DNA of 64,000 nucleotides. Origin: Thermodesulfobacteriota bacterium (lineage in GTDB: Bacteria; Desulfobacterota; Binatia; Bin18). Under the pieces are notes generated by a model that saw only the letters and a list, made by a program, of their open reading frames with translations, did not search any database and had not been told where the DNA came from. The stretch is from NCBI GenBank assembly GCA_964291405.2, contig OZ219926.1:2048001-2112000 (forward strand). Reading direction: 5' to 3'. The number at the start of each line of letters is the position of its first letter. The first letter of the stretch is position 1. The position numbers and the translations under genes were made by a program. Below are positions 27,578 to 48,226 of this stretch, piece by piece.

Positions 27578-27719
27578 CCTCCGCGAGCAGAAAATCCATC
27601 CCCTGCTACCATACCCTCAGATGAAATGCCAATCGTTTGATAGGTACCAGCAGGCTGTCGACTCGGGTCTTGTAGCCATCTCCGTGAGGACGTGCTACAG
27701 AGCGGTACCGAGGCCAGCC

Positions 27720-28457
27720 ATGCCGAGTGACGTCAGGGATGCAAAGAGTAAACGTGTTCAGCATCTCCATGGTATTAAGGAACACGTTTACTCTTCAGGG
27801 AAAGCTGAGGGAGTTCGGGTCCTCCTGGTCCGACATGGAGAGACCATCTGGAATCAGGAAAACCGCTGGCAGGGCCAGGCCGATACGCCGCTCAGCCAGA
27901 CGGGCTATGACCAGGCGTGGCAACTCGCCCGGCGTTTCCAGCATGAAGAATGGTGTATTCAGGCGATTTACACCAGCGATCTCCGGCGGGCGCGGGACAC
28001 CGCAGATATTCTGGGCCAGGCGTTAGACGTCATGCCGGTCGAGGCGACGGCGTGGCGCGAAATGGATATTGGAACCTGGAGTGGACTGACAACCGCCGAG
28101 GTAGCAAACCGACACGCCGAGGAATGGGCACGGCTGCGACAGGGCGAAGACCTGCCACGCGGCGGAGGGGAAACATTCGCCCAGTTCCAAGGCCGCCTCG
28201 TGCAGTCGAGTCAACGTTTTGTCCGAGACCACAGGGGCGAACAGATTATCGTGGTGACCCACGGGGGCGCGGTGCGGGCTTTCCTGTTGCACTGTCGTGG
28301 TCTGAACATGAATCAATTCGGCCAGATTGAAAAAATTGGTAATACCGGCGTCAGCGAAGTCTCCCTCTTTCCAGGCGGAGAGGCCAAGATTCACATGATT
28401 AACAGCACTGCTCATCTCAACGGGGCGGTGCTGTCTGGCGAGACGGTTGACGCCTAG
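27720..28457 (+). CDS. Histidine phosphatase (PGM/CobC-like) with N-terminal extension containing a palindromic element
   Basis: LVRHGET.WN, SDL.RA..TA, GGET and VTHGG motifs. ATG 27720 is the last in-frame ATG/GTG/TTG before the RHG motif. Confidence 0.88.
   Translation: MPSDVRDAKSKRVQHLHGIKEHVYSSGKAEGVRVLLVRHGETIWNQENRWQGQADTPLSQTGYDQAWQLARRFQHEEWCIQAIYTSDLRRARDTADILGQALDVMPVEATAWREMDIGTWSGLTTAEVANRHAEEWARLRQGEDLPRGGGETFAQFQGRLVQSSQRFVRDHRGEQIIVVTHGGAVRAFLLHCRGLNMNQFGQIEKIGNTGVSEVSLFPGGEAKIHMINSTAHLNGAVLSGETVDA
27743..27796. repeat. 54-bp palindromic element, copy A
   Basis: AAAGAGTAAACGTGTTC-AGCATCTCCATGGTATTAAG-GAACACGTTTACTCTTC. 16 of 17 arm positions pair. Confidence 0.9.
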
Positions 28458-28470
28458 AGCAGAGTCACAT

Positions 28471-28540
28471 TAGGGGCCAGGGATTGAGAGTTGGGGGCTC
28501 GGTTTTCCCAATCTCTAATCCTCAGTTCCCAACACCCAAT
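28471..28540. repeat. Degenerate heptamer repeats in inverted arrangement (STRR-like)
   Basis: TAGGGGC CAGGGAT TGAGAGT TGGGGGC followed by AATCTCT AATCCTC AGTTCCC AACACCC, intergenic. Confidence 0.5.
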
Positions 28541-28566
28541 CTGAGGATAGCTCGCTGTTACATTTT

Positions 28567-30808
<2,242 letters not shown>

Positions 30809-32398
30809 TTATAAACGGATCAGTTGGGCCGACAGAATAGGGTCGAGTCTGCGTAACGCGGCCAGAACCTCAGGCGAGACCTGGTCATCGACATGAATCA
30901 GGGAGATGGCTTCTCCGCCGATTTTCTCCCGCCCCAGTTCTAGACCGGCAATATTGATTCCCAAGGTGCCGAGGAGGGTACCCACCTGGCCGACCACACC
31001 AGGAACATCTTTGTTGTTCAGCAGCAGAATCGTTCCCTCGGGAACCGCTTCCAGATGAAAATGATTGACCCGCACTAGGCGCACGGTCTGATTGCTGAAG
31101 ACCGCCCCCGCGGCAGAGTTGACACTGTCCCTGGTCTGCACGCTGACATCGATGGAATTTAAAAAATCACTGGGAGTGCTGCTGCGCGACTCGATGACGC
31201 GGATACCGCGCTCACGCGCGACAAGCGGCGCGTTCACCACATTAATCGCCTGTTCGAGAATCGGGCTGAGCACCCCGCGCAGAACCGCCGCGGTGGCTGG
31301 TGCGACCTCATACGCGGTGATTTCCCCGCTGTACTCGATATGGATCTCGCGCGGGGCGTGCGGCGTAATCTGGGCGAGAAAGCTGCCGAGCTTTTCGCCC
31401 AGGAAGAGATACGGTTCCAAAATAGCCAGTTGCTCGTGGCTCAGCGCGGGGAAATTCACCGCGTTCTGAATCACCCCGCGCTGGAGGAAATGAGCGACCT
31501 GGTCGGCAATGGCAATCGCGACGTTGATCTGAGCCTCGTCTGTGGCGGCGCCCAAATGCGGAGTGCAGATCACATCTTGTCGCTGCAAGAGGGGATGGTC
31601 TGCCGGGGGCGGCTCGTCAACAAAGACATCCAGGGCTGCGCCCGTGACTTTACCACTCTCCAGCGCTTCAAGCAGGGCGGCTTCGACGACGATCCCACCC
31701 CGTGCGCAGTTGATAATGCGCACCCCGTCTTTCATCTGGGCTAGGGCGTGAGCATCGATCAGACCGCGTGTTTCCTTGGTCAGCGGCGTGTGTACGCTAA
31801 TAAAATCCGCTTGCCGATAGAGTTCCTCAAGCGGGACGAGTTCGACGTTCATTCTGGCGGCCGCTTCTGAGGTGACGAAAGGATCGTAGGCGACGACTCG
31901 CATCCGTAGCCCTAGGGCACGTTCGGCGACAATAGTTCCGATATTGCCCAGGCCGACCAAGCCGAGCACTTTATTGCAGACTTCGGTTCCCGTGAATTGT
32001 GAACGCTGCCAGTGACCGGCCTTGAGCGAGGCGGTGGCTTGCGGAATATTGCGCGCCAGGGCGAGGAGCAGAGAGATGGCGTGCTCGGCCGTGGTGACGT
32101 TGTTCCCGCCCGGCGTGTTCATGACGACGATGCCACGTCTGGTTGCGGCCTCAACATCGATGTTATCAACGCCGATGCCGGCCCGCCCGATCACGCGCAG
32201 GTTTTGGGCTGCCGTGATGACATCCGGCGTGACTCGTGTCCCGCTCCGAATAATCAGGCCCTGATACGGGGCGATCCGCTCGGCAAGTCCCTGGTCTGTT
32301 AGTCCTGGTTGAACGGCACAGTCGATATCCGACTGGGCTTGCAGCCGCTCTACCCCCTGAGGGGCGAGCGGATCGGTAATAAGCACTTTATGTGACAT
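30809..32398 (-). CDS. serA: D-3-phosphoglycerate dehydrogenase (with ASB/ACT domains)
   Basis: RAGIGVDNID, GLGNIG, NCARGG, TPHLGAAT, C-terminal ACT (DVPGVVG). Confidence 0.95.
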   Translation of the reverse strand: MSHKVLITDPLAPQGVERLQAQSDIDCAVQPGLTDQGLAERIAPYQGLIIRSGTRVTPDVITAAQNLRVIGRAGIGVDNIDVEAATRRGIVVMNTPGGNNVTTAEHAISLLLALARNIPQATASLKAGHWQRSQFTGTEVCNKVLGLVGLGNIGTIVAERALGLRMRVVAYDPFVTSEAAARMNVELVPLEELYRQADFISVHTPLTKETRGLIDAHALAQMKDGVRIINCARGGIVVEAALLEALESGKVTGAALDVFVDEPPPADHPLLQRQDVICTPHLGAATDEAQINVAIAIADQVAHFLQRGVIQNAVNFPALSHEQLAILEPYLFLGEKLGSFLAQITPHAPREIHIEYSGEITAYEVAPATAAVLRGVLSPILEQAINVVNAPLVARERGIRVIESRSSTPSDFLNSIDVSVQTRDSVNSAAGAVFSNQTVRLVRVNHFHLEAVPEGTILLLNNKDVPGVVGQVGTLLGTLGINIAGLELGREKIGGEAISLIHVDDQVSPEVLAALRRLDPILSAQLIRL

Positions 32399-32422
32399 GC
32401 GGGTACTCGTCGCTCGGGTCAA

Positions 32423-33577
32423 TCATTCGACGGGCGGCCAACTTGGTAAGAGAACGGCTTCGGCGGCTCGGACGCCACTGCCCAACGTCAGCGTGGCTCC
32501 AAACCGACTCAGGGCCATTTCAAGGCTGCTGATCGCCGTAATGACATCAAAAGGTCCGGCATAGCCAAGGTGAGAAATGCGCACGATTTTCCCTTTGAGA
32601 TGGTCCTGTCCACCGGCAAGATCAACACCCATACGGTCGCGCATATAGGTCAGCAAACGCACGCCATCAACTGTGGACGGGAGCCATATGCCTGTTGCAG
32701 CCTGGCTTGGATGAGTCTCGGCCAAGAGACGGAGGCCCAGGGCACGCACGGCGGCATGGGTCGCGGTCATCAACAAGGTGTGGCGAGCCCAGACCTGTTC
32801 GAGCCCTTCTGCCTGGAGTTGCTGGAGCGCTTCGTGTAAGCCGCTAATCAGCGAAATAGCCGGGGTGTAGGCGGTGGTATGTTTGGCTTGTTCCGTGCGC
32901 TCCTTTTGCAGATCAAAGTAGAAACGGGGAAGCTGTGCCCGTTCCGTATGCTGCCAGGCTTTCGGGCTGAGGGCGATAAACGCCAGCCCTGGGGGCAGCA
33001 TCAGGGCCTTTTGTGAGCCGGTAATGAATACATCAATCCCGGAGCGGTCCATGGGGATATCGATTGCGCCAACCGCAGTAATGCCATCGACAATGAGCAG
33101 GGTCTCAGAGTCCCGCGTCAGGGCGGCGATGTCTCGGACCGGGTGGAGGACCGTTGTCGAAGTCTCACTGGCCTGCATCAGAATAGCCTTGGCTTTGGGC
33201 TGATGCCGTAAAGCCTTGGCTACCGCCTCGACCGTCACGGCCTGCCCCCATTCGACCGTAATCTCTTCGGTTTGCACACCGAATGCCGCGCAGATTTTCA
33301 GCCAGCGTTGGCCGAATTTCCCACCATTGACCACAATGACACGGTCTCCGGGCGAGCAGGTATTCGTGATGGCCGCTTCCATCGCCCCGGAGCCCGAGGC
33401 CGCCAGGATGAGCACGTCCTGGGTGGTTTGGAACAGCCATTGGAGGCCGCGCTGTACTTCAGCAAAGAGTCGGCTGAATTCGGGGGTCCGATGATGAATG
33501 AGGGGCTGCGACATACGCAGCAAGACATCAGGCGGCACCTGAGTCGGCCCCGGAGTGAGTAAATATCGCTTTAACAT
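32423..33577 (-). CDS. Class V PLP aminotransferase (alanine-glyoxylate/serine-pyruvate family; possible phosphoserine aminotransferase)
   Basis: LLTPGPT, HHR..EF, SETST, GSQKAL.LPPG, RISHLG. Directly upstream of serA. Confidence 0.9.
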   Translation of the reverse strand: MLKRYLLTPGPTQVPPDVLLRMSQPLIHHRTPEFSRLFAEVQRGLQWLFQTTQDVLILAASGSGAMEAAITNTCSPGDRVIVVNGGKFGQRWLKICAAFGVQTEEITVEWGQAVTVEAVAKALRHQPKAKAILMQASETSTTVLHPVRDIAALTRDSETLLIVDGITAVGAIDIPMDRSGIDVFITGSQKALMLPPGLAFIALSPKAWQHTERAQLPRFYFDLQKERTEQAKHTTAYTPAISLISGLHEALQQLQAEGLEQVWARHTLLMTATHAAVRALGLRLLAETHPSQAATGIWLPSTVDGVRLLTYMRDRMGVDLAGGQDHLKGKIVRISHLGYAGPFDVITAISSLEMALSRFGATLTLGSGVRAAEAVLLPSWPPVE

Positions 33578-33753
33578 CGGTATGCCCACGCTACACGCAT
33601 AAAAAAGCCCGGATGGGCTCCCCGTATCCAGGCTGTCAGCTCTCCCTCCCTCCTTGATCAAGACATGATGTATCGAAGCCGTGAGGCGGAGTCAATGCTC
33701 CTGCCTGACCCTTATATCCGCTCCTAACCTGCCTAAAAGTCTTTGGTTTTCGC

Positions 33754-33782
33754 TTGACACGAAAAATGGCGCATACTATAGT
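33754..33782 (+). promoter_or_regulatory. sigma70 promoter of the dcw cluster
   Basis: TTGACA (33754-33759)-N17-TATAGT (33777-33782), near consensus, upstream of mraZ. Confidence 0.8.
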
Positions 33783-33783
33783 C

Positions 33784-33810
33784 GTGGGAGAAAGTGGGAG
33801 AAAGTGGGGA
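33784..33810 (+). promoter_or_regulatory. MraZ-binding direct repeats
   Basis: GTGGGAG-AAA-GTGGGAG-AAA-GTGGGGA with 10-bp period, matching the known (G)TGGG MraZ box arrangement. Confidence 0.85.
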
Positions 33811-33823
33811 TTAGGGTAGATTC

Positions 33824-34294
33824 GTGTTTCGCGGGAGTTTTGAACATACTATTGACGAGAAAGGAAGGGTCAGTATCCCCTCGAAATTTCGAGAGATATT
33901 GGTTGGGCGGAACGATGCTCGACTGATTGTCACGAAATTTATCTTGGCATCCTTCCGCTGTCTTGATGTTTACCCCTATGCGGAATGGGAAAGCTTTGAG
34001 CAGGACCTGAGGAAAAAGCCCCGTTTTGATCAAAACTTCTTAAAAATCGAGACCTTTTATCTCTCTAATGCTCAGGAATGTGCCGTTGATAAGCAGGGCC
34101 GTATTTTAATTCCCCCGCTCCTCAGAGAATATGCCAGCCTGAAGAAGGACGTCATGTTTGCCGCTGCTCTTGAGAAATTTCGCATATGGGACAAGGCTGT
34201 ATGGCAAGAATTTAATGAAGAGTCTGAAAAAGATCTTGCCCAAGATCCACGGTTATTCAGTAATTTGAACGCAGGTATGGCAGCAGACATATAG
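33824..34294 (+). CDS. mraZ: Transcriptional regulator MraZ
   Basis: FRG.FEHTIDEKGR.SIP and DKQGRILIP..LR. First gene of the dcw cluster. Confidence 0.95.
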   Translation: MFRGSFEHTIDEKGRVSIPSKFREILVGRNDARLIVTKFILASFRCLDVYPYAEWESFEQDLRKKPRFDQNFLKIETFYLSNAQECAVDKQGRILIPPLLREYASLKKDVMFAAALEKFRIWDKAVWQEFNEESEKDLAQDPRLFSNLNAGMAADI

Positions 34295-34307
34295 GAACAG
34301 GTCCAAG

Positions 34308-35318
34308 ATGAGCAGAGCCTCCATGCACGCAGCATCTCTCTCTTCAGACTCGGTTCAGCCGATCCAAGCGGCCGGGCACATTCCGGTCATGCTGGAGCAG
34401 GTCCTCTCCTTTCTGCAACCTTGTCTTGGCGGTGATATTCTCGACGGGACGCTCGGGGGAGGCGGACACGCTGCGGCGCTGTTGGAGTCCAGTTGTGGAA
34501 AAGGCAGGCTGCTGGGGCTTGACCGTGATCCACGGGCGCTGCTGGTCGCGCGACGACGGTTAGCGCCGTTCGTCGGTCAGCATGTCACCCTTCATGCGAA
34601 TTTCAGCCAAGCGGCGGCTGTCCTGCGTGAGATGGGATGGGCAGGAGTCGATTGCATACTCCTTGACCTGGGGTTTTCCTCACTCCAAGTCGAAGACGGG
34701 GAGCGCGGCTTTAGTTTTTTACGCCCGGGGCCTCTCGATATGCGGATGGACCAAAGTGGCGGGCAGAGCGCCGCGGATATTGTGAATGCGTCCAGTGAAG
34801 AAGAATTACACCGTATTCTCCGAGAATACGGAGAAGAGCGGGCGGCCAGGGCGATTACCCGGGCAATCCTCCAGGGACGTGTACACGGGCCGATCACAAC
34901 GACGACGACTCTTGTAAAAATTATCGAGCGCAGTGTCCGCAGGCCCGCCCGCCATCAGCGGCATCGGGTCCATGCGGCGACACAGACCTTTCAGGCACTG
35001 CGCATCGCAGTAAATCAAGAACTCCAGCACTTAGCCGTATTCTTGCAGGAAGGATATACATTGCTGCGGCCTGGAGGGCGTATGGTGGTACTCTCCTACC
35101 ACTCGCTTGAAGATCGTCTGGTGAAAACCGCCTTCCGGCGCTGGGCCTCCGCCTGTATCTGTCCACCCCAACTCCAGGTATGTGCCTGTGACTGGAAACC
35201 GCAGGTCCAGGTGTTAACCCCAAAGCCGCTGACACCAACCGGCCAGGAGGTCATGGAGAATCCGCGGGCGCGGAGTGCACGCTTGCGCGCAGTGGAGCGA
35301 TGCGAAGGAGGAGGATGA
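34308..35318 (+). CDS. rsmH: 16S rRNA m4C1402 methyltransferase
   Basis: HIPVML, DGTLGGGGH, RGFSF..GPLDMRM, FQALRI.VN.EL, NPRARSA.LR. Confidence 0.96.
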   Translation: MSRASMHAASLSSDSVQPIQAAGHIPVMLEQVLSFLQPCLGGDILDGTLGGGGHAAALLESSCGKGRLLGLDRDPRALLVARRRLAPFVGQHVTLHANFSQAAAVLREMGWAGVDCILLDLGFSSLQVEDGERGFSFLRPGPLDMRMDQSGGQSAADIVNASSEEELHRILREYGEERAARAITRAILQGRVHGPITTTTTLVKIIERSVRRPARHQRHRVHAATQTFQALRIAVNQELQHLAVFLQEGYTLLRPGGRMVVLSYHSLEDRLVKTAFRRWASACICPPQLQVCACDWKPQVQVLTPKPLTPTGQEVMENPRARSARLRAVERCEGGG

Positions 35319-35590
35319 TGTGGAAGTTGCCCGGATGGGTTAAGTATGGCGTACTTGTAGCTGTCGGGCTGGCCCTGGTCCTGTCCCACCTCTGGATTCG
35401 ACTTCAGGTGGTCTCTACGGGATATACGCTTGCAGATACGCGACAGCTCATCAACGCCTTGCAAGAGGAACACCATGCCCTCACGATAGAATGGGAAGCG
35501 GCCACGGCCCCCAGTCACTTGTCTCAGCTCGCCGGCGAGCGGCTTGAACTCTCTGTGCCTCGCCCTGAGCAGATCGTTATCCTGCCGTAG
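35315..35590 (+). CDS. ftsL: Cell division protein FtsL
   Basis: Small protein with a single TM and coiled coil, between rsmH and ftsI. Confidence 0.8.
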   Translation: MMWKLPGWVKYGVLVAVGLALVLSHLWIRLQVVSTGYTLADTRQLINALQEEHHALTIEWEAATAPSHLSQLAGERLELSVPRPEQIVILP

Positions 35591-35599
35591 GAGGACCGC

Positions 35600-37558
35600 A
35601 TGTCGAGACGGATCGGTCTAATGGCGGGGATGTTGGGGTTGGGCCTGCTTCTTATTGTCGCCCGTCTTGTCCACCTCACAGTGGTGCAGAGGGATACGCT
35701 CGCGCAGCGGGCTGCTGGACAGTATCGCCACCGTGAGACCGTTACGCCACAGCGGGGTGCTATTGTTGATAGCAACGGACGGCGGTTGGCCTTTAGCGTT
35801 GGGGCTGAATCCCTCTATGTCCATCCGGCAAAACTCCCGGCCGACGTGGATGACATGGTTCCCGTGCTGGCCCGACATCTCTCTCTGCCCGCACAACAGG
35901 TCGACGCCATCCTCCATTCCTCCAAGCCGTTTGTCTGGCTCAAACGCGGGGTTTTCCCCCAAGAGGCCAGCCGTATCAAGACGCTCCGCGTGTCTGGCCT
36001 TGACAGCAAGAGCACTCAGCGCCGTGTGTACCCATACCGGACCTTAGCCGCCCCCCTGCTCGGATTTGTCAACGTGGATGCGCGAGGCTTGGAGGGGATC
36101 GAAAAGGCGTATAATCGCTATTTGCTTGGTCCAGTGAGTCATACTCTGGGTGAGCGTGACGGGCGTCAACGAGCGATCTTGATCCGTGGCGGCAGTCAGC
36201 AACCTGAAACATTCCGCGTGCGTTTGACTCTAGATACGACCCTCCAGTACGTGGCTGAGCGCGAATTGGAACGTGCCGTGCGGCACAGTCGGGCTGCGGC
36301 TGGGTCTGTAGTCATACTTGACCCTCAGACGTTTGCGATTCTTGCGCTGGCTCAGGTGCCGACCTTCGATCCGAATACGCCCGGAGATTTCCCACCTGAG
36401 ATGCGTCGTAACCGGGTGATCAGCGACTATTACGAGCCCGGATCGACGCTCAAGGCATTATTAGTTGCCGCCGCCCTGGATGCCAGACAAGTCAGCGAAA
36501 CCGACCCCATTTTTTGTGAACACGGGGCCTATCGAGTTGGCGGGCATACGATCCACGACGTTCATCCCTACGGCGAGCTCAACGTTGACGGGGTCTTGAC
36601 CAAATCGAGCAATATTGGCGCAGCGAAGATCGGCGAGCTATTGGGGAAGGAACGCTACTATAACTACCTTCGGGCCTTTGGGCTCGGACAGAAAACCGGC
36701 GTTGATTTGCCTGGAGAGATAAGCGGCGATCTCCCTTCGCTCCGGGCCTGGTCTCGGATCAGGCTGGTAACGGCCAGCTTTGGGCAGGGGGTGGCAGTGA
36801 CTCCCCTGCAGTTGGCTTGTGCCTATGCGGCGCTCGCCAACGACGGTATGCTCATGCGTCCCTATGTGGTGAGCGAAATAGTGAGCAGCACAGGGGAAGT
36901 CGTCCACGCCAACGGTCCTATCCCGATCAGGCAGGTGATTCAACCTGAAACCGCGCGGCGCATGCGGACCTTGCTTGCGCACGTTGTCGAGCCGGGGGGA
37001 ACGGGCCGACGTGCACACATTCAAGGGTTTCGGGTGGCGGGAAAAACGGGGACCTCGCAAAAACATGACCCCCGTGGCGGGTATTCGGAGACCGGTCGAA
37101 TCGCGTCCTTTATTGGCATGGTTCCCGCCGATCAGCCTCGACTGGTGATTTTAGCAGTCATCGACGAGCCCAAGACGGCCACCTACGGAGGGACGGTTGC
37201 GGCCCCAGTATTTCAAGGGATTGCCCGGCAATCCCTTGCCTACCTTGGGGTCGCGGGAAGTACGGGAGAAGGCGCAGACGTCCAATGGGCAGGCAGTCCA
37301 CATTTCTCGACCGCCAAGCTTTCCGCCGAACCCGCGTTTTCGCCCGAAGCCTATAGCACAGCAGGGGAGGACTCGTTAGCCAACCGCTCTGCCGACGACT
37401 TTATTGGTCTCAGTCTGCGGGCGGCCATGCGGAAAGCGTCTGCGAGCGGGCTGCGGGTCGTTACCCACGGGAGCGGATATGTCACGGACCAGAGGGTCCG
37501 AAATAAGGCGCAGACTGGCGAAGCGGTGTATGAACTCAGACTGGAAGCGGACGAGTGA
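35600..37558 (+). CDS. ftsI: Class B penicillin-binding protein FtsI
   Basis: RGAI.D.NG, EPGSTLK (SxxK), KSSN (SxN), GKTGT. C-terminal PASTA-like remnant. Confidence 0.95.
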   Translation: MSRRIGLMAGMLGLGLLLIVARLVHLTVVQRDTLAQRAAGQYRHRETVTPQRGAIVDSNGRRLAFSVGAESLYVHPAKLPADVDDMVPVLARHLSLPAQQVDAILHSSKPFVWLKRGVFPQEASRIKTLRVSGLDSKSTQRRVYPYRTLAAPLLGFVNVDARGLEGIEKAYNRYLLGPVSHTLGERDGRQRAILIRGGSQQPETFRVRLTLDTTLQYVAERELERAVRHSRAAAGSVVILDPQTFAILALAQVPTFDPNTPGDFPPEMRRNRVISDYYEPGSTLKALLVAAALDARQVSETDPIFCEHGAYRVGGHTIHDVHPYGELNVDGVLTKSSNIGAAKIGELLGKERYYNYLRAFGLGQKTGVDLPGEISGDLPSLRAWSRIRLVTASFGQGVAVTPLQLACAYAALANDGMLMRPYVVSEIVSSTGEVVHANGPIPIRQVIQPETARRMRTLLAHVVEPGGTGRRAHIQGFRVAGKTGTSQKHDPRGGYSETGRIASFIGMVPADQPRLVILAVIDEPKTATYGGTVAAPVFQGIARQSLAYLGVAGSTGEGADVQWAGSPHFSTAKLSAEPAFSPEAYSTAGEDSLANRSADDFIGLSLRAAMRKASASGLRVVTHGSGYVTDQRVRNKAQTGEAVYELRLEADE

Positions 37559-39117: not shown

Positions 39118-40193
39118 TGCTGTACGCCTTTCTCTACGCCCTCCATACGACCTACTCCGGGTTTAACGTCTTTCGCTATATTACGTTCAGAACCCTGTTG
39201 GCGGGCTTATTGGCTCTGAGCGTTTCCTTTATCCTCGGGCCGTGGCTGATTGCGCGCCTGACCGCGCTTAAGGCGGGTCAGCCCATCCGCTCAGATGGAC
39301 CCGCGGCGCATCTGAGTAAAGCTGGCACGCCGACCATGGGAGGGACGTTGATCCTGTTCTCTCTCACGCTGGCGACCCTCTTGTTGGCGGACTTAACCAA
39401 TCCGTACGTCTGGTTGGTGCTGGGCGTTACTATCGGTTTTGGTTTGATTGGATTTCTCGACGATTACAAAAAACTCAGCCAGCAGAACTCGGCCGGTTTA
39501 CGTGGGAGGTATAAACTCCTGGCGCAATGTGTGATTGCCCTGGCCGCGGCCTGGTGGCTGTTTGTACAGCCGGGCTTTGACACCACGCTGACCATTCCTT
39601 TCCTCAAAGACGTTCGGCCGGCCCTGGGCTGGTGGTATATTCCCTTTGCTGCCCTTGTGGTGGTAGGAGCCTCGAATGCGGTCAATCTCACTGATGGTCT
39701 GGATGGGTTGGCCATTGGGCCGGTGATGATCGCTGGGGTGACCTATGCCATTTTCACCTATGTGAGCGGGCATAGTGGAATGGCGGAGTACTTACAGGTG
39801 CCCTATGTGGCAGGCTCCGGGGAGGTGGCCGTTTTCTGTGGAGCCCTAGCGGCCGCCGGGCTGGGCTTTTTGTGGTTTAACGCCTACCCGGCCCAGATGT
39901 TTATGGGTGATGTGGGCTCCCTCTCCCTCGGGGCGGCGCTGGGTATTGTTGCGCTGATCAGTAAACAGGAGATCGTTCTGGCGGTCGTGGGCGGTGTTTT
40001 TGTGATTGAGGCGGCCTCGGTCATCTTTCAGGTGAGCTCGTATAAATTGAGGCGGAAACGCATCTTCCGCATGGCTCCACTACACCACCATTTTGAGTTG
40101 CTGGGCTGGCCAGAGCCGCTTATCATCGTCCGCTTTTGGATTGTTTCCATTATCTGTGCGCTCGCTGCATTAAGCACGCTCAAACTGCGCTGA
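39117..40193 (+). CDS. mraY: Phospho-MurNAc-pentapeptide transferase
   Basis: [35 protein letters not shown]. Confidence 0.97.
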
Positions 40194-40203
40194 GAAAACA
40201 AAT

Positions 40204-41538
40204 ATGAATCTGACAGAGAAAACTGTAGTGATCATTGGCCTGGGGCGAACGGGGGAAAGCGTGGCGCGTTGTGTTCTTGCTCACGGCGGCCACGTCCGTA
40301 TCGCAGATAGTCATGCCGATGCGGTCGCAGCAGCACACACCCAGTTCGATATAGAAATCCGCTCGGACGACGACGCTGACGGACTCCTGCGTGGAGTGCA
40401 GCTCGCGATTCCCAGTCCTGGTGTGCCGGTGACCCACCCCCTACTGCGGGAGGCGGTCCAGCGGCAGGTTGCGGTGCAGAGTGAAATCGAGTTGGCCTAT
40501 CGGCTTCTGGCCTGTCCGGTTGTGGCCGTCACCGGTACGAACGGGAAAAGCACAACGACGGCCCTTCTTGGAGAGATGATCCAGCAGTCCGGTCAGGAGA
40601 CCTTTATTGGCGGGAACTTGGGAACCCCGCTGATTGACGCTGTGGGAACAGCCAGTGCGGTTGCGGTTGCCGAGATTTCCAGCTTTCAACTCGAATGGGT
40701 CGAGCAGTTCCGTCCACAGATTGGTGTCTTTCTCAATCTGAGTGAAGATCACCTCGATCGACACGGCAGTTTTGAACAATATGGCCGGACCAAACGGCGC
40801 TTATTTGCTCAGCAGCGTCGGTCTGATTGGGTGGTTATGAATCGAGACGACGCCCGCGTCCAGGCGTTGTGTCACGGGCTCCCCGGACGACTGTTTTCTT
40901 TTGGCTGGACTCCTGTGACCGGAGACAAGAGCGAAGGGACCTGGGTTGAGGCGGAGACCCTCGTTCTTCGTCACGCCGGCCGCGAAATGCGCTATGCGAT
41001 TGATGACATCCAACTCCGTGGGAGGCATAATATTGCCAACGTCATGGCCGCGGTGAGTGCGGCAACGTTGTGGGGGGTCCCCCCAACTGTCATCCAGGCC
41101 GTATTAGCCTCTTTTACTGGCTTACCACACCGGCTTGAACTCGTCGCGGAGAAAAACGGGGTGGCCTATATCAATGACTCCAAAGGGACGAATATCGACG
41201 CCGTGGTCCAGTCACTCAACAGTTTTTCTGAGCCGGTTATTCTACTGGCTGGCGGGGTGGAGAAAGGCGGCGATTATCGTCCCCTTCGAGAGGTCGTCCA
41301 GACCAAGGTGAAAAAACTCATTCTCTTTGGCCAAGCTCAACGCTCCTTATGCGCGGCCTTGGGGCAGGACACCGAAACACTGCTGGTCGATTCATTGGAC
41401 GAGGCGGTTCAGGCCGCCCACCGGGGAGCCCGAGCGGGGGATATCGTCCTCCTCTCTCCGGCCTGCGCGAGTTTTGATCAATTCCAGAACTATGCCCATC
41501 GTGGGGAGGCGTTCCGGTCCTACGTTGCAGCGCTATGA
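40204..41538 (+). CDS. murD: UDP-MurNAc-L-Ala:D-Glu ligase
   Basis: TGTNGKSTT, EISSFQLE, DHLDRH, NDSKGTN, LSPACASFDQF. Confidence 0.96.
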   Translation: MNLTEKTVVIIGLGRTGESVARCVLAHGGHVRIADSHADAVAAAHTQFDIEIRSDDDADGLLRGVQLAIPSPGVPVTHPLLREAVQRQVAVQSEIELAYRLLACPVVAVTGTNGKSTTTALLGEMIQQSGQETFIGGNLGTPLIDAVGTASAVAVAEISSFQLEWVEQFRPQIGVFLNLSEDHLDRHGSFEQYGRTKRRLFAQQRRSDWVVMNRDDARVQALCHGLPGRLFSFGWTPVTGDKSEGTWVEAETLVLRHAGREMRYAIDDIQLRGRHNIANVMAAVSAATLWGVPPTVIQAVLASFTGLPHRLELVAEKNGVAYINDSKGTNIDAVVQSLNSFSEPVILLAGGVEKGGDYRPLREVVQTKVKKLILFGQAQRSLCAALGQDTETLLVDSLDEAVQAAHRGARAGDIVLLSPACASFDQFQNYAHRGEAFRSYVAAL

Positions 41539-42701
41539 AGATGCTTGACGAAATACTCTCCGGGCAGTTCACAGACGCCCAAACCACACAGCCGATCCGT
41601 CGTGGTCCGGTTGACTCATGGCTGCTCGGAGCGGTGCTCCTGTTGATCTTGAGTGGGGAGTTATTTGTCTTGAACACGACGTATTTTTATGCGTTTGACC
41701 GTTTCGATGATACCTATCTGTTTGTCCGGAAACATAACGTCGCCTTAGTGATCGGCGGTCTTGGCGGTCTCGTGGCCCTGGCGCTCCCTTCGACGGTATT
41801 CCGTACCCTCACCTATCCGGCGTTAATCGGAGCATTCGTCAGCCTCTGCCTTGTCTTGCTACCGGGCTTCGGCCACGGCAACGTGCAGCGCTGGCTGTCC
41901 TTTGGAGCGCTAAATTTTCAGCCCTCTGAATTCGCTAAGGGAGCCGTCGTGCTCTATCTGGCCTATGCACTTACGAAAAAGGCGGACCGTATACACAGCT
42001 TTGTGTATGGCCTGCTTCCGCCCCTTTTGGTGGTCGGGTGTATCGCGGCGCTCATTGCCCTGGAGCCAGATTTAGGAGGGGCCGTATTCATCAGCCTTCT
42101 TTTAGCCGCTTTGCTTTTTGTTGCTGGCACGCGGATTCGGCATCTCGCCGTGCTGGCTTTCGTCGGGCTGCTGTGTCTCAGCTACGGAGTCCTGAGTGCA
42201 GATTATCGGACTGATCGTTTCTTGACGTTTCTGAACCAGTCGGCGGATTTGCAGGGTGAAGGCTATCAACTCGATCAGTCCCGCCTCGCCTTTGGGGCAG
42301 GTGGGGTCTCTGGGGTTGGGCTTGGAGAAAGTCGCCAGAAGATGTTTTATTTGCCAGAGGCCCACACGGACTTTATCTTCGCCGTGATTGGCGAAGAAAC
42401 CGGCTTATGGGGTACCACAGGCATCGTCCTCCTCTTTGGTCTCTTGGGTGCTCGGGGGCTCCGGGTCGCGTCGCACCACCCTACACAGTTTGGTCGTTTA
42501 CTCGCATTTGGCTGTACCTTCCTGATCGTCTGTCAGGCTGGAATCAATATGGCGGTTGTCATTGGCCTGCTCCCGATAACCGGACTGCCGTTGCCCTTCA
42601 TCAGCTACGGAGGGTCTGCATTAGTCATTATCCTTTTCTGTACTGGCATATTGCTTGGACTCTCGCGTGAAGTCCGGGGGAAGGAGAGTGCCCATGCCTA
42701 G
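41535..42701 (+). CDS. ftsW: SEDS peptidoglycan polymerase FtsW
   Basis: FQPSEFAK, EPDLG, LPEAHTDFIF.VIGEE.G, LPFISYGGS. Confidence 0.95.
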   Translation: MKMLDEILSGQFTDAQTTQPIRRGPVDSWLLGAVLLLILSGELFVLNTTYFYAFDRFDDTYLFVRKHNVALVIGGLGGLVALALPSTVFRTLTYPALIGAFVSLCLVLLPGFGHGNVQRWLSFGALNFQPSEFAKGAVVLYLAYALTKKADRIHSFVYGLLPPLLVVGCIAALIALEPDLGGAVFISLLLAALLFVAGTRIRHLAVLAFVGLLCLSYGVLSADYRTDRFLTFLNQSADLQGEGYQLDQSRLAFGAGGVSGVGLGESRQKMFYLPEAHTDFIFAVIGEETGLWGTTGIVLLFGLLGARGLRVASHHPTQFGRLLAFGCTFLIVCQAGINMAVVIGLLPITGLPLPFISYGGSALVIILFCTGILLGLSREVRGKESAHA

Positions 42702-43845
42702 AGCGCCCCGACTCCTTCTTGCAGCGGGAGGTACCGGCGGACACCTCTTTCCTGGAGTTGCTGTGGCAGAGCTTGCGCAGCGACAGGCCGGTGCTGCGGT
42801 GTTGTTTGTTGGCACCTCCGGCGGAATGGAAAAGGATGTCATCCCGCAGCTTGGATTTTCTCTACGTTTCATCCCTGCTGAACAACTCCGCGGACGAACG
42901 AGGTGGGGGAAAATCCGCGCCATAGGAGTCGCTGGCTATGGTGTTGGGGCCGCCTGGCGCATCATTCGTGAGTTCGCTCCCGACGTGATCTTCAGCATCG
43001 GGGGCTATGCGTCTGCTCCGACCGTCTTGGCTGGCTGGCTGCAGCGTATTCCCTGCGTTCTACTTGAGCCCAACGCGATTCCTGGGCTGGCCAATCGCTT
43101 CCTGAGTTGGTTTGCCGCCCGCGTCTGTCTTGGATTTGAAACGGCCGCCCGCTTTTTCCCGAGACACAAAGTTGTCCATACCGGCAATCCGGTGCGATCT
43201 GTCTTACGGCCAACACTTCAGCCGACTGTAGCAGATAAGCCCTTTACCATTCTCGTCTTTGGTGGCAGTGCCGGAGCCCATCGGCTCAACCTCATCGCGC
43301 CGCAGGCCTTGGCCCGGTTACACAAGACCCAGAGTGGACAAAAGGGTGTGGACCCAGCGCCAGCGATACAGATCATCCATCAGACCGGCCAGGCCGAGTA
43401 CGCGTCCGTCTCAGCCTCGTATGCGACTGTAGGGATAGCGGCACGGGTGGTCCCGTTTATTGACGCCATGCAGGAAGTATATGCTGAGGCCGACCTCGTC
43501 ATTTGCCGAGCTGGAGCAATAACGGCCGCAGAGCTGACTCTGCTCGGAAAGCCGGCCATCCTTATTCCCTACCCATACGCGGCAGACGACCACCAACGAG
43601 CCAATGCCGAGGCCCTTGTGCAGGCGGGCGCAGCGGTGATGCTCCTGGACCACACACTGTCCCCCGAGTTGCTCGAACAGACGATTGCGCGCCTCGTCCA
43701 GCATAGAGACACCTTAGGAAATATGGCCCGAGCAGCGGCGACTTTAGGCTGCCCCGACGCGACCGCCGCTGTCGTCCAGACCTGTTTTGCCTGTACCCCT
43801 TATATGTCTTCTTCAGGTCAGGAGGTTTCGTGTCAAGAAAGATGA
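42694..43845 (+). CDS. murG: Lipid II GlcNAc transferase
   Basis: [36 protein letters not shown]. Confidence 0.96.
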
Positions 43846-45485
43846 AGGAACGGGAACCGGACGGTCCTGCAGACCGATGGGCGGCAAAGAGTGAACATGT
43901 CCTCCCATCAACCAAAAAAGCCGGACACGTTTACTCTTTCGAAGCTAGTACGCCGCCACCCGTGGCCGTGGGTCTCCAGATGCCACAAAGAGTGAACATG
44001 TCCTCCCATCAACCAAAAAAGCCGGACACGTTTACTCTTTCCACCCGAACCGCCCTTCCCCCCCGCGCGACTGCGGTGTCCGAGACGCCGGTCTTGTTTA
44101 ATACCAACCGGCGGATTCACTTTGTCGGTATTGGCGGAGTCGGGATGAGCGGTATAGCCGAGGTCTTACTCAATCTCGGTTATCAAATTAGTGGCTCGGA
44201 TCTGACCGAATCCGAAACAACGCGGCGATTGAAACACAACGGGGCACATATTGTGTATGGTCACCAACCACAGCATGTGCATTCCGATACCGATGTTGTG
44301 GTCATCTCGTCAGCTGTCAAATATGCGAATCCGGAAGTCGTGCGGGCTCGTGCACTCAGTATTCCAGTCATTCCACGGGCCGAAATGCTGGCTGAGCTGA
44401 TGCGCCTCAAATACGGCATTGCGGTTGCCGGGACGCATGGGAAGACGACGACGACTTCCTTAATCGCAACCTCCCTCGCCCATGCCCACTTTGATCCAAC
44501 CATGGTTATTGGTGGACGGCTCAACGTGCTGGGGTCTAATGCCCGGTTGGGGCAGGGACGTTTTCTGGTTGCTGAAGCCGACGAGAGTGATGGGACGTTT
44601 CTCCTACTCAGCCCAACGATTGTTGTGGTGACCAATATTGATCCCGAGCACCTTGACTACTATGGACATATGGATCGCGTCCAAGCCGCCTATCTTGACT
44701 TTATCAATCGGATTCCCTTTTACGGCCGCGCCGTGCTGTGCCTGGACAGCGTGCATGTCCGTGCGCTGCTTCCCCAGGTACGCAAGCGGTTTGTCACCTA
44801 TGGCCTGAGTCCGGAGGCGGATGTGCAGGCCAAACAACTGACGGTCTCCGGCCTCACCACACGGTGTGAGGTCTGGCGCGGAACAGAGCGCCTGGGCGAT
44901 ATCCAACTGAACCTGCCTGGCCGTCACGCTGCGCTGAATGCCCTGGCGGCAGTGGCGGTCGCCCTTGAGCTGGAGATTCCGTTTTCTCAAGTCCAGGAAG
45001 CCCTGCACAAATTTACCGGTATTCAGCGACGCTTTGAGATCAAGGGAGAAGCAGCGGAGGTGTTGGTGGTTGACGACTACGCCCATCACCCGGAAGAATT
45101 ACGCGCCACCTTACGGGCCGCTAGGGAGGGCTTTGGTCGCCGTTTGGTCGCGCTCTTCCAACCCCATCGCTACTCACGCACCGCTTATCTGTTCGACGAC
45201 TTCCTGTCTGCGTTTGATGATGCGGACGTTTTGGTCCTGACGGAAATTTACCCCGCTGGTGAGGAGCCGCAGACTGATATCTCGGGGGAAAAACTCTATC
45301 AAGCCATCAAACGGCGTGGCCATGCTGAGGTCTATTTTGTCCCGCACCGCGCAGAGCTGGCACAGACGGCGCAGACCATCGTCCGGGCGGGGGACTTAGT
45401 GTTGACATTAGGGGCCGGTGATATTGTCCAGACCGGGCCCGAGTTGCTCGCACAACTGCGGAGTGGAGGCGTCAATGCAAGCTGA
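43842..45485 (+). CDS. murC: UDP-MurNAc:L-Ala ligase with about 85-aa N-terminal extension
   Basis: [43 protein letters not shown]. Start uncertain: GTG 43830, ATG 43842 (ATGA-coupled to the murG stop) or ATG 43998. Confidence 0.93.
43886..43939. repeat. 54-bp palindromic element, copy B
   Basis: AAAGAGTGAACATGTCC-TCCCATCAACCAAAAAAGCC-GGACACGTTTACTCTTT. 15 Watson-Crick pairs, 1 G.T and 1 mismatch. Confidence 0.9.
43987..44040. repeat. 54-bp palindromic element, copy C (identical to B)
   Basis: Exact direct repeat of copy B, 101 bp downstream. Identity extends to 56 bp (43885-43940 = 43986-44041). Confidence 0.92.
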
Positions 45486-46413
45486 GTTGCGGACGGCGTT
45501 GAAGACGCAGCTGCGACGCGTCCTCGGTCCGTGCGTGCGCTTTGATGTTGGTCTGGCCCGCTACACGTCTTTTCGTATTGGTGGGCCGGCCGATATTTTT
45601 GTCGAACCAAACACCCCGGAAGAGCTTCAGGTGCTGATGCGCCTGGTGACGGAATGCGGAGTCCCCTGCTTCCTCCTCGGAGGGGGGACGAATGTCCTCG
45701 TCAGTGACAAAGGGGTCCGCGGGGTCGTGATTCGGCTGGGGCGGGGTTTCGACTACGCAGCGTGGGAGATCCAGCCCGAGCGGCAGCAGACCGCGCAGGT
45801 TCGTGTCGGTGCCGGCCGTTCATTAGGCCGATTCGTACGAGAGGCTGCACGCAAAGGGTATGGGGGAGTGGAATTTGCCGAGGGGATTCCTGGACGCGTG
45901 GGGGGAGGCCTCTTGATGAATGCTGGGGCCTTTGGGGGCGAGTTGAGTGAAGTGGTTGAGACCATCACGGGGGTGACCCACACAGGCCAGTCTCTGCGGT
46001 TGTCCAATGCCTCGGTTGGCTTTTCCTATAGAACGACCGCACTCCCGCCGCAATGTATTGTGAGTGAGGTGATGTTCCGGCTCCGCCAAAAGCCCCAAGC
46101 CAGCATTACGGCCGCGATGCAACAGGCGCGCGAAAAACGGAACCGCAGGCAACCCCACGGATACCCGAACGCTGGGTCCATTTTTAAGAATCCGCCGGGA
46201 CGCTATGCGGGGCGCATGATTGAGGCGGTGGGCTGTAAGGGCAGCCGCCAGGGCCAAGCTCAGGTCTCCGAGCAGCATGCCAATTTTATTGTGAATACGG
46301 GAGGTGCCACGGCGAGCCAGGTATGGCGCCTCATAGAACAGGTGCAACGCCAGGTATGGCAAGAAGAACGGGTCTGGCTTGAGCCCGAGGTCCGGCGGGT
46401 TGGAGAATGGTAG
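45475..46413 (+). CDS. murB: UDP-N-acetylenolpyruvoylglucosamine reductase
   Basis: [23 protein letters not shown]...[21 protein letters not shown]. Confidence 0.95.
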
Positions 46414-47342
46414 CCGAGATGAAATCCAAACAGCGCGTCGGGGTGCTCTGGGGCGGACTGTCGGCGGAACGGGAGATTTCCCGCATGACGGGAGAGGCGG
46501 TCTGTGCAGCGCTGGAGACTCGCGGCTATCGCGTCCAGGCTATCCCGGTTGAAGCCGATGGCGCCTGGATTGCTCAGGCGCAAAAGACGGATGTCATTTT
46601 TATCGCCCTGCATGGGAAGTTCGGAGAAGATGGGGCTGTGCAAGGCGTCCTGGAAACCCTGGGGATTCCATACACGGGGTCCAGCGTCATGGCGAGTGCC
46701 GTCGCCATGAATAAGCCGATGGCAAAGCGGATTTGGCAAACCCATGATTTACCAACGCCCGACTGGCAGATTGTTGAGCAGGGGATGCCGGCTGAGCAGG
46801 TCGTGCCCTCCTACCCGGTCGTGGTCAAACCGGTTGCGGAAGGGTCGAGTGTTGGCGTAAGTATCGTCCGCTCCGAGGCGAGGCTCACGCCCGCCCTGAC
46901 GCAGGCGTTTCAGTATGACACTGCGTGTTTGGTGGAAGCCTATATTCCCGGGAAAGAGGTAACTGTCGGGATTCTCAAGGGACAGGCGATTGGGGCAATG
47001 GAAGTGGTTGCCAAAGGTGAATTCCATTCCTATGAGGTCAAATATACGCCGGGTCGGGAAGAATTTCTCATGCCGGCCCCGCTGCCGGAAGCAACCTATA
47101 CCCAGGTCCTCAAGCTGGCACGGCAGGCGCATTATGCCCTCGAGTGCAGCGGATATAGTCGAGTCGATATACGAGTGAGTCCGGCTGGGGAGATTTTCTT
47201 GATCGAGTTGAACTCGCTGCCTGGCTTGACAGGATTGAGTTATTTACCACGCATCGCCGCCCATCATGGACTGTCCTATGAGGATCTCGTGGAGGCTATC
47301 CTACAGCAGGCAACTCTCCATATTCCGCGAGGAGAAGTATGA
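46407..47342 (+). CDS. ddl: D-alanine--D-alanine ligase
   Basis: GG.SAEREIS, LHG..GEDG..QG, EGSS.G, E.NSLPGLT..S. Confidence 0.95.
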   Translation: MVAEMKSKQRVGVLWGGLSAEREISRMTGEAVCAALETRGYRVQAIPVEADGAWIAQAQKTDVIFIALHGKFGEDGAVQGVLETLGIPYTGSSVMASAVAMNKPMAKRIWQTHDLPTPDWQIVEQGMPAEQVVPSYPVVVKPVAEGSSVGVSIVRSEARLTPALTQAFQYDTACLVEAYIPGKEVTVGILKGQAIGAMEVVAKGEFHSYEVKYTPGREEFLMPAPLPEATYTQVLKLARQAHYALECSGYSRVDIRVSPAGEIFLIELNSLPGLTGLSYLPRIAAHHGLSYEDLVEAILQQATLHIPRGEV

Positions 47343-48217
47343 GACCCCCAGCCCGCAAAAAGTTCTCGATCTTTCTCCGGCTATGGCAGGCCATAGCCCA
47401 ACGGATTCTGATACCCGTCCGGTCTCTCATCCTATTGGGGCTCGTTTGTGTCGGTTGCACCATCGGGGGGGTCGTCTTGGTACACTATGCCGAGCAGCAC
47501 CCGTACTTCGCCGCGACAGATATTGTTGTCTCAACTGACGGTAGACTCACACCGGACGAGATCAGACAGTGGGCAGGGACGGCACCGGGGATGAATATTA
47601 TCGCTCTGGACGTCCAGGCAGTGGAGCAGCGTTTACGGCAACACCCCTGGGTCCACACGGCCGCTGTCACCCGGGAGTTCCCGCAGCGTATTTATCTGAC
47701 TATCCGGGAGCGTCACCCGATAGCGCGCATCCGGCGTCCAGAAGCCGCGTATCTGGATGGGAACGGTGACAGCTTTGTCGCTCCCACATCGAGTGCGCAC
47801 GATCTGCCGTATGTGAGCGGACTTGAGCGGGTTCCCCTGGAAACGCAGACTGTCAGGACGGTCCTAGCCGGAGCGCGGTTGTGTCTCTCGCTGATACAGG
47901 AATGGAACGTTGCACTGTCTGAAATTCATTGGGACGACCGGCGAGGATATACGCTGTTTTTGTCCGACCGTCAGGTCGTGATTCGGCTGGGTCAGCAGAT
48001 CCGCCCCACCGTGTTTGTGCTGATGCAACGGGTACTGGAGCGCTGGCCGCGAGACCGACGGGCAACCGTTTTTGATGCGCGCTTTACTGATCAGATTGTG
48101 GTATCCCCTCTTCCATTGAGACTGGATAAGGGGAAAAAGAGGAAACGTGTCCAGCATCTCCTGTCTACTGGAGGACACGTTTCCTCTTTGAGACGTGGAC
48201 TTAACTCGCACGCTTAG
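47339..48217 (+). CDS. ftsQ: Cell division protein FtsQ with C-terminal extension containing a palindromic element
   Basis: Single TM, POTRA (HPWV..A.V.R.FP...I.ER.P.A) and D.RF.DQIVV end motif. Lies between ddl and ftsA. Confidence 0.88.
   Translation: MRPPARKKFSIFLRLWQAIAQRILIPVRSLILLGLVCVGCTIGGVVLVHYAEQHPYFAATDIVVSTDGRLTPDEIRQWAGTAPGMNIIALDVQAVEQRLRQHPWVHTAAVTREFPQRIYLTIRERHPIARIRRPEAAYLDGNGDSFVAPTSSAHDLPYVSGLERVPLETQTVRTVLAGARLCLSLIQEWNVALSEIHWDDRRGYTLFLSDRQVVIRLGQQIRPTVFVLMQRVLERWPRDRRATVFDARFTDQIVVSPLPLRLDKGKKRKRVQHLLSTGGHVSSLRRGLNSHA
48136..48189. repeat. 54-bp palindromic element, copy D
   Basis: AAAGAGGAAACGTGTCC-AGCATCTCCTGTCTACTGGA-GGACACGTTTCCTCTTT. All 17 arm positions pair. 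Confidence 0.9.
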
Positions 48218-48226
48218 GGAGGCGGT

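Follow-up and report, generated by a model that had tools for sequence, protein, structure and literature searches.

Why do four copies of a short palindrome lie inside the open reading frames of housekeeping genes along a single stretch of a bacterial chromosome? The stretch, here called the window, comprises 64,000 nucleotides of a Thermodesulfobacteriota bacterium of the class Binatia (positions 2,048,001 to 2,112,000 of contig OZ219926.1, assembly GCA_964291405.2). Its four 54-bp copies, A to D, fall near the start of a histidine-phosphatase-family gene, ahead of the conserved core of MurC (two copies), and in the tail of FtsQ. Our analysis makes it very probable that they belong to a lineage-specific, non-autonomous mobile palindromic element, with copies A and D inserted in frame and copies B and C probably inserted in the same way.

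The element is small and numerous. The source genome amounts to 4.95 Mb in three contigs, of which the main one, C3, has a G+C content of 57.8%. Scanning it for the arm with up to four mismatches, and pairing arms 5–60 nt apart, gave 147 copies; the arm matches printed at up to three mismatches were all on C3. The terminal inverted arms are 17 bp long, with the consensus AAAGAG[T/G]AAACGTGTCC, and the loop between them most often measures 20 nt (82 copies), followed by 21 nt (34), 22 nt (9), and 23 nt (8) and more rarely by 19 nt (6), 17 nt (4), 18 nt (3), or 24 nt (1). Overall lengths are 51–58 bp and no transposase gene lies inside, as in a miniature inverted-repeat transposable element (MITE). 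A preliminary description of this DNA had reported the four window copies, each with 17-nt arms and a 20-nt loop, and all four are there as it had them. The arm pattern with up to two mismatches has eight matches in the window, which form these four pairs, against a mean of 0.08 in shuffled sequence, and none of 100 shuffles reached eight. The length of exactly 54 bp that it assigned to the element is right for the window and is simply the commonest length genome-wide (82 of 147). The loop is conserved and directional, reading AGCATCT..ATGTCTATTGGA or its reverse complement (forward in 54 copies, reverse in 74, and unclear in 19 by our scoring); a second, A-rich loop type reads TCCAATCAGACAAAAAAGCT. 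In one reading frame on either strand, the third codon of the arm is TAA or TGA. The remaining frames can stay open, and a 54-bp copy then spells 18 residues, most of them polar or basic (for example, KSKRV...GHVYSF or ERVNVSS...DTFTL).

The strongest evidence comes from the comparison of orthologous sites. We aligned 23 element sites with genomes of the same genus, and at 17 of them (the four window copies and 13 further sites) at least one close genome is exactly or nearly empty. No target-site duplication was found at these 17 sites, and the earlier reading of the window alone had likewise noted no consistent one; filled and empty states differ by the element alone. Exact empty orthologous sites mean that the element moves, which upholds the earlier proposal of a non-autonomous mobile palindrome and answers the search for empty sites that had been put forward with it. 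At the AlaRS site, the element is filled only in the source genome and G002, both with the odd arm variant AAAGCAG/CTGCTTT, and is empty in 10 of 12 genomes. Because the empty genomes include three without the family (G003, G008, and G012), insertion is the derived state there.

Judged from the same alignments, the element is also lost, either exactly or with short palindromic remnants. RimO-like site 1 is filled in five genomes, the most distant element-bearing ones among them, yet is empty in G002 and G004 and retains AAATTT in G001 and G010. Further remnants measure 3, 6, 18, 23, 33, 36, 45, and 51 nt. There are also mini-palindromes of 22–23 nt in which the outer arm halves are fused and the centre is deleted, one at C3:2812971-2812992 and one at the G010 ortholog of 3433587, the latter retaining a donated TAA stop. 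The AAATTT-type remnants, like the fused mini-palindromes, have the appearance of hairpins across which the host deleted DNA. Two sites have a more complex content. In G001, what is left of the element's ends at the PurL stop site (C3:1010395) encloses another palindrome, GGGGCGACG...CGTCGCCCC, which suggests nesting in, or replacement by, another hairpin family. At C3:2720289, G001, G006, G007, and G010 have a second copy about 50 nt downstream that the source genome lacks, so element content varies within one spacer.

The loop is inverted in some genomes at seven of the 23 sites: copy A in G001, and the sites at 2921742, 2926115, 2493732, 2722844, 1017241, and 3449046. In two of these, copy A and 2926115, the asymmetries of the outer arms have stayed in position, and the flip therefore took place within the element rather than by re-insertion. 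Since loops flip in place, their orientation says little; a replication-direction test saw no switch in orientation along the chromosome. The flanks show a weak, symmetric preference: among the 128 oriented copies, 63 have G at −5 and 76 have C at +5, A hardly ever occurs at −6 or T at +6, and in our reading all eight empty sites inspected have G at −5. A sequence-specific target was considered and set aside, as this weak symmetric signal is all that was found.

The family is also restricted to one lineage. Strict matches number 33 in the source genome and 6–45 in each of 14 of the 24 other genomes of the genus, and there are none in 16 genomes representing 16 other genera of the class; the reversed pattern gave none in all 41 genomes. 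Across these 41 related genomes, no member was found outside a subclade of one genus, in which at least 15 species-level genomes carry it. In public genomes, an exact-pattern scan gave at least 116 loci, and the 80 loci listed all come from metagenome-assembled genomes titled Candidatus Binatia. The public runs holding the stretch are labelled as sponge, coral, or plain metagenome, or bear coded names. Public-run data over 43600–48400 consist of contigs only, in which loop flips or excision within a population are not visible; one run recorded as RNA has a relative's contigs over parts of this interval, which is not evidence of transcription in the source strain. The viral contig collection held no pattern match, and a phage vector is thus not supported. 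Along C3, 85 of the 147 copies occupy 1.75–3.0 Mb, a quarter of the chromosome, with 36 of them in 2.25–2.5 Mb, and very few lie at 0.25–0.75 Mb and 4.0–4.75 Mb. The copy-rich region adjoins the cumulative GC-skew minimum at ~1.8–1.9 Mb, a putative origin.

The four window copies and the genes around them are as follows.

27720..28457, plus strand: histidine phosphatase family gene (Pfam PF00300, His_Phos_1, E 4.7e-52), which carries copy A
27743..27796, no strand assigned: copy A, 54 bp, in frame, residues 8–26 of the histidine-phosphatase-family protein
42763..43845, plus strand: murG (NCBIfam TIGR01133, 286 bits, above cut-off), whose TGA stop overlaps the murC-frame ATG (ATGA)
43842..45485, plus strand: murC, long form (TIGR01082, 557.9 bits), with alternative starts GTG 43830, GTG 44076, and TTG 44094
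43886..43939, no strand assigned: copy B, 54 bp, after the murG stop and before the conserved MurC core
43987..44040, no strand assigned: copy C, 54 bp, a second copy within the same spacer or MurC extension
47339..48217, plus strand: ftsQ, with copy D at residues 266–284 of 292 and a Pfam POTRA_1 (FtsQ-type) domain at residues 59–125
48136..48189, no strand assigned: copy D, 54 bp, in frame in the FtsQ C-terminal tail, nine codons before the stop
48227..49462, plus strand: ftsA (TIGR01174, 389.7 bits), with a GGGAGG ribosome-binding site 26 nt past copy D

Are these copies translated? By their frames, copies A and D are true in-frame insertions of 18 codons. Copy D is read as coding because the stop codon falls after the element and the tail is conserved. 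It is filled in six of nine aligned genomes, where FtsQ ends in ...PLRLDKGK[KRKRVQHLLSTGGHVSSL]RRGLNSHA-stop, and exactly empty in G005, G006, and G011, where the protein ends in ...LDKGKRRGLNSHA-stop, shown longer as ...PLRLDKGKRRGLNSHA-stop. The weak NCBIfam FtsQ match stops at residue 265. The ends of the element are marked by the junctions 48135/48136 and 48189/48190, at which contigs of other copies run off. Copy A is read as coding because a conserved ATG and ribosome-binding site precede it (ATG at 27720 with GAGG six bases upstream, in all six aligned genomes) and no in-frame ATG, GTG, or TTG occurs from copy A to the RHG motif. In these six genomes, indels lie solely upstream of the ATG. 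The His_Phos_1 match begins at residue 34, after copy A; the NCBIfam matches of this phosphatase are all under their equivalog cut-offs. The site is filled in three of the six genomes (the source genome, G004, and G001), exactly empty in G005 and G006, and 51 nt shorter than the filled form in G002. Divergent from the phosphatase gene runs a gene for an F420-dependent LLM-class oxidoreductase (26684-27571, minus strand; TIGR03619, 263 bits), and the 148-nt spacer between the two starts (27572-27719) contains indels among relatives.

A coding role for copies B and C requires that MurC start at the murG stop, which is likely. The murC frame runs without a stop from the end of murG in all 12 genus genomes examined, and from the translations of these genomes we read a GGAGG-like ribosome-binding site and a start codon at the murG end. 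GTG 44076, which would give a MurC of normal length, is no start codon in five of the 12. Among eight genomes, 68 of the 122 non-element sites of the extension vary, and the sole length differences are the two 54-bp elements. Two observations speak against a coding reading here: the variable sites are spread almost evenly over the codon positions (23/40, 18/41, and 27/41, a weak test), and the murC equivalog profile starts at residue 13 of the short form beginning at GTG 44076. Taken together, we think it rather more probable than not that copies B and C are translated as an N-terminal extension of MurC. Copy B is filled in the source genome and G004 and exactly empty in the other six of eight aligned genomes; copy C is filled in the source genome, G010, and G002 and exactly empty in five. 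The two thus occur in different combinations among these genomes, and a minor-strain contig in a public run lacks both, with a net change of −54 for each. The peptides quoted in the preliminary description are correct, with copy C read in the other open frame.

In-frame copies are not peculiar to the window. By Pfam placement, MnmG is interrupted within its GIDA domain, MnmE within its helical domain, and AlaRS within its catalytic domain. A RimO/MiaB-like enzyme has two copies, inside its UPF0004 domain and past it; in Mfd and in a UvrA-like protein the copy falls between domains; an APH (kinase) domain and a FAD_binding_3 domain each contain one; and UvrC and a NUDIX protein carry theirs close to the N-terminus. 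Against E. coli MnmG (3CP2), the alignment opens an 18-residue gap exactly at the element, and the AlaRS and RimO-like copies form in-frame extra segments relative to their empty orthologs. A test for an open frame with coding signal on either side of the element returned 10 internal copies, all previously counted, and added none from among the copies called intergenic. Across genomes, every one of the 34 filled or remnant states at seven clearly coding sites is a multiple of three in length, compared with 19 of 36 at six non-coding sites; this tally is our own count over related genomes and is descriptive only. Within the source genome, the corresponding length bias (18 of 21 copies inside genes versus 50 of 80 intergenic copies) is not significant (Fisher p = 0.066).

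Most copies, however, are elsewhere. Outside the window, genes were called with our own codon log-odds caller trained on long open reading frames, a crude instrument (4374 genes covering 86.8% of the contig) on which all positional counts depend. By these calls, 80 of the 147 copies are intergenic, 46 overlap a gene end, and 21 are fully inside a gene, whereas 20,000 random 54-nt windows fall 9.8% between genes, 8.3% across gene ends, and 81.9% inside. Copies fully inside genes are thus 14% of the total against 82% of random windows, a contrast that we label a selection filter, by which most copies in genes would have been removed. The absence of intergenic copies noted in the preliminary description is accordingly a property of the window alone. 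Likewise, its statement that the element adds peptide segments to essential proteins stands for copies A and D and for MnmG, AlaRS, and the RimO/MiaB-like enzyme, and likely for copies B and C, but does not describe the majority, which are intergenic or at gene boundaries.

Gene boundaries reveal a second mode of coding interaction. Thirty-six of the 46 gene-end overlaps are at 3′ ends. Twenty-three genes stop at the TAA or TGA of arm positions 7–9 (...K-E-stop), 10 form their stop with the first 1–2 nt of the element, and three more stop deeper inside; 33 genes, corresponding to ~22% of copies, take all or part of their stop codon from the element. Two copies counted as intergenic directly abut a stop. 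The stop frame of the arm, reported as unused, is indeed unused by the four window copies and is widely used elsewhere as a donated stop. At the other 10 overlaps, all at 5′ ends, the predicted start is within the element, in three cases as the arm's own predicted GTG. A Pfam scan covered 20 of the 33 stop donors (19 of the 23 arm-stop genes and one of the 10 others), and 16 had matches. In the donors checked, among them CoxG, a pair of enoyl-CoA hydratases, a pair of acyl-CoA dehydrogenases, RimM, and a 739-aa AIR-synthase-related protein that we read as PurL, the C-terminal domain is complete, its profile ending only a few residues from the new stop. At five donor sites with an empty ortholog, insertion took place 0, 0, 2, 4, and 5–6 codons before the old stop.

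This concentration at gene ends invites a different explanation, in which the element is a host-serving RNA or DNA hairpin (a 3′-end stabiliser, intercistronic insulator, termination device, or protein-binding site) spread by selection. REP hairpins near stop codons are reported to affect translation in E. coli. In the present family, 35 of 147 copies have a stop in their first 9 nt or abutting them (23 + 10 + 2), 17 of the 60 intergenic element sides that face a gene end lie no more than 10 nt from the stop, the 3′ arm is often followed immediately by a ribosome-binding site, and arm symmetry is kept. The predicted hairpins are also stable: for three copies folded as RNA the energies range from −22.6 to −31.1 kcal/mol, with z between −3.5 and −5.2, and in 200 shuffles of each sequence no fold was as good. 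Yet sites are filled or empty among close species regardless of the gene, 25 of the 80 intergenic copies lie between divergent genes and just five between convergent ones, about a dozen copies appear from their frames to be translated inside enzymes, and loop orientation relative to the gene is not fixed (14 versus 9 among stop donors in our tally). An intrinsic terminator was tried and rejected, as copies with a loop of ~20 nt do not match the pattern of a short-loop GC-rich hairpin with a T run; the terminator scan listed one partial fold, within copy D on the minus strand. Rfam, whose search had been suggested, gave no match at the gathering score in the window and none at E up to 1 in 43800-48300, which agrees with the earlier impression that this is not a described family. 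We therefore regard a host-serving hairpin as an unlikely origin of the family. The RNA-structure or DNA-binding signal that the preliminary description had held open could apply to some copies but cannot explain the family.

If the element is mobile, what moves it? A unit of the REP/REPIN type moved by a RAYT (Y1 HUH) enzyme, or another "peel and paste" derivative of IS200/IS605, would account for the palindromic form, for the lack of target duplication, and for empty sites as precise as exact excision would leave. The source genome does contain one Y1_Tnp (RAYT-like) gene, at C3:981618-982403. This sole locus is, however, split by another repeat into open reading frames of 135 and 110 aa and flanked by a different GC-rich hairpin family with the core TGCGGGCTGCCAGCCCGCA, not by the 54-bp element. 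Nor does Y1_Tnp presence track the element: of the genus genomes, 7 of the 14 that carry the element have such a gene, as do 5 of the 10 that lack it. The arms begin AAAGAG, where REPs begin GTAG, and a single arm is not itself palindromic. With Y1_Tnp tied to another repeat and no co-occurrence across 24 genus genomes, we rejected a RAYT/IS200 mobiliser, and we rate an origin of this type as still more doubtful than a host-serving hairpin. The proposed search for a RAYT, IS200-like, or other insertion-sequence transposase flanked by the same arms came back empty in the source genome. There, no arm pair encloses a gene, and unpaired arms are degenerate or truncated copies. The repeat that splits the Y1_Tnp locus is ~181 bp long; the copy at C3:1016615-1016797 has five others at 98–99% identity, near 981890, 1156519, 1385244, 1727453, and 4364593, and it is the one at 981890-982072 that interrupts the locus. 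The AAAGAGG arm subtype of the 54-bp element has neighbors of its own: it is often preceded by a small hairpin, CCCCTCTTGGGAGGG, and followed after the copy by GTGCCGCG..AGCGC, and at 10 loci it belongs to mosaic clusters of differing small palindromes (for example, C3:1001340-1001425, 3498297, 3669607, and 4668922).

It is highly improbable that every copy is untranslated and that GC-rich DNA, with its long open frames, has simply simulated coding. This view can point to the almost neutral evolution of the MurC extension and to the normal-length start at GTG 44076, but it fails for copies A and D and for those inside MnmG, AlaRS, and RimO-like domains, and even at copies B and C it is confronted with a GTG that is missing in five of 12 genomes, a frame open in all 12, and 122 sites free of indels.

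The mobile palindromic element, in contrast, would bring these observations together. It inserts as an exact unit, without duplicating its target, and its mobilising enzyme may act in trans. Copies would persist only where the harm is small, that is, between genes, at gene ends, and in protein regions that tolerate them. Where the stop-giving frame comes to lie in a gene's last few codons, the insertion would hand the gene a new stop (...K-E-stop), and in the open frames a 54-bp copy would add 18 residues without a frameshift; coding insertions could therefore be survived. The RNA hairpin of each copy may alter mRNA stability or translation at some sites, as a side effect and not as the cause of the family.

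Several points weigh against this reading. No transposase linked to the element was found, and the source genome, which the search covered, contains no parent or longer element with the same arms. The arms show 88 symmetric double changes compared with 24 ± 4 for shuffled partners, of which 39 reflect the T/G subfamily split at arm position 7. Exact empty sites nested among filled lineages could be the product of strain recombination rather than excision. Within 60 nt of a stop, three copies are read through (in FtsQ, YceD, and an outer-membrane efflux protein) while 36 end the gene, which departs from a naive read-through expectation of 60% (binomial p ~1e-11); this expectation is approximate, since one of the two loop orientations itself contains stops. 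The excess of stops may reflect a target bias or a benefit of an untranslated hairpin beside the stop codon. Finally, we infer translation of the inserted segments from conservation of frame.

A bolder version of the mobile-element reading can be offered only tentatively. In its lack of target duplication and its exact loss, the element resembles IS200/IS605 elements, which move by single-strand hairpin transposition; strain recombination could equally give exact loss. The element might then be a hairpin transposon with its own mode of movement and of exact loss, a weak palindromic target (G at −5, C at +5), no Y1/RAYT partner, and a preference for stop codons, for which every reading frame would be survivable. 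It would represent an independent "coding palindrome" in a sponge-associated phylum, rewriting stops, termini, and surface loops, with loop inversion switching the peptide.

What is documented of palindromic selfish DNA in coding genes comes mainly from Rickettsia and a small number of other host-restricted bacteria; the present family is an instance of the same phenomenon in an unrelated, uncultured lineage. A single site can be filled in one genome and empty, flipped, or reduced to a remnant in another, and such sites lie also within AlaRS, MnmG, MnmE, Mfd, FtsQ, and probably MurC. Such rich comparative material permits the dating of insertions and losses, the mapping of positions that tolerate an 18-residue insert, and the tracing of the mobilising enzyme through carrier genomes. 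It also matters for annotation in this clade, where gene starts, gene ends, and "insertions" in conserved proteins are shaped by the element.

It is useful to set the family beside known systems. Rickettsia palindromic elements (RPEs) were reportedly introduced by Ogata et al. in 2000. In the portions available of two accounts, RPEs are palindromic repeats of 105–146 bp inserted in frame in housekeeping genes by an unknown mover (PMC10969869, PMC2229807). On these partial accounts, the likeness is close: both kinds of element are palindromic and non-autonomous, keep open frames, occur both in frame within conserved housekeeping genes and in intergenic positions, extend the protein by a segment absent from homologs, and belong to host-associated lineages. 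The present element differs in measuring 54 bp rather than 105–146 bp and in occurring in an unrelated phylum (Candidatus Binatia, from sponge and coral metagenome runs). Its length and its Binatia-only listed loci would also set it apart in sequence from the RPE families of Rickettsia and Wolbachia. The analogy drawn in the preliminary description thus extends to the features of in-frame insertion and stops short of the sequence family. Two further differences are that ~22% of the present copies donate a stop, and that filled, empty, flipped, and remnant states abound over at least 15 species-level genomes.

Stop donation itself has a precedent. As the part of the report available describes it, QMITE1 and QMITE2 of Coxiella burnetii overlap the 3′ ends of functional genes by 1–50 bp, supply the stop in some cases (entries marked STOP for ubiB and CBU_2020) or a C-terminal extension (in EnhC), and come with direct repeats and terminal inverted repeats (PMC5896051). 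Overlap of gene 3′ ends with supply of a stop is therefore not new in kind (PMC5896051). On that description, QMITEs are longer, whereas the present family donates stops much more frequently (33 genes) and does so without target duplication. The Neisseria Correia element, in the passages accessible, has a 107-bp form, a small inverted repeat with open frames fused to host open reading frames, and a related form with stop codons that stays intergenic (PMC2229807). Those passages associate Correia elements with a TA target duplication and with IHF and promoter motifs, neither of which was seen in the present element.

Two other comparisons concern the hairpin itself. In plastid genomes, hairpin loops invert when the spacer between short inverted repeats flips, repeatedly and independently. 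The loops of the present family flip similarly, at seven of 23 sites, but unlike the non-mobile plastid hairpins they do so inside a mobile element, changing the peptide in coding copies. REP/BIME and REPIN-RAYT repeats are short multicopy hairpins, often located just past stops in operons, clustered with other small hairpins, and free of target duplication. The present element is likewise a short multicopy hairpin, near stops, clustered, and without target duplication, yet it has no RAYT association, combines a long perfect 17-bp stem with a 20-nt loop, and by its frames would often be translated. The terminal inverted repeats and size of a classical MITE are present, but no target duplication was seen and no parent element was found in the source genome; of REP/RAYT systems, both the repeat-flanked RAYT gene and its co-occurrence with the repeat are lacking. 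REP, BIME, and RUP are named in the available parts of two of the articles already cited (PMC2229807, PMC10969869). In the accessible text of the literature searched, which included queries for Binatia palindromes, Binatota sponge transposases, and sponge-symbiont MITEs, no published description of this element was found. As far as these partly available sources go, the family is an undescribed one, which works like the RPEs and the Coxiella QMITEs and is a member of neither. What distinguishes it among such systems is its very small size, its frequent donation of stop codons, and the frequent inversion of its loop in place.

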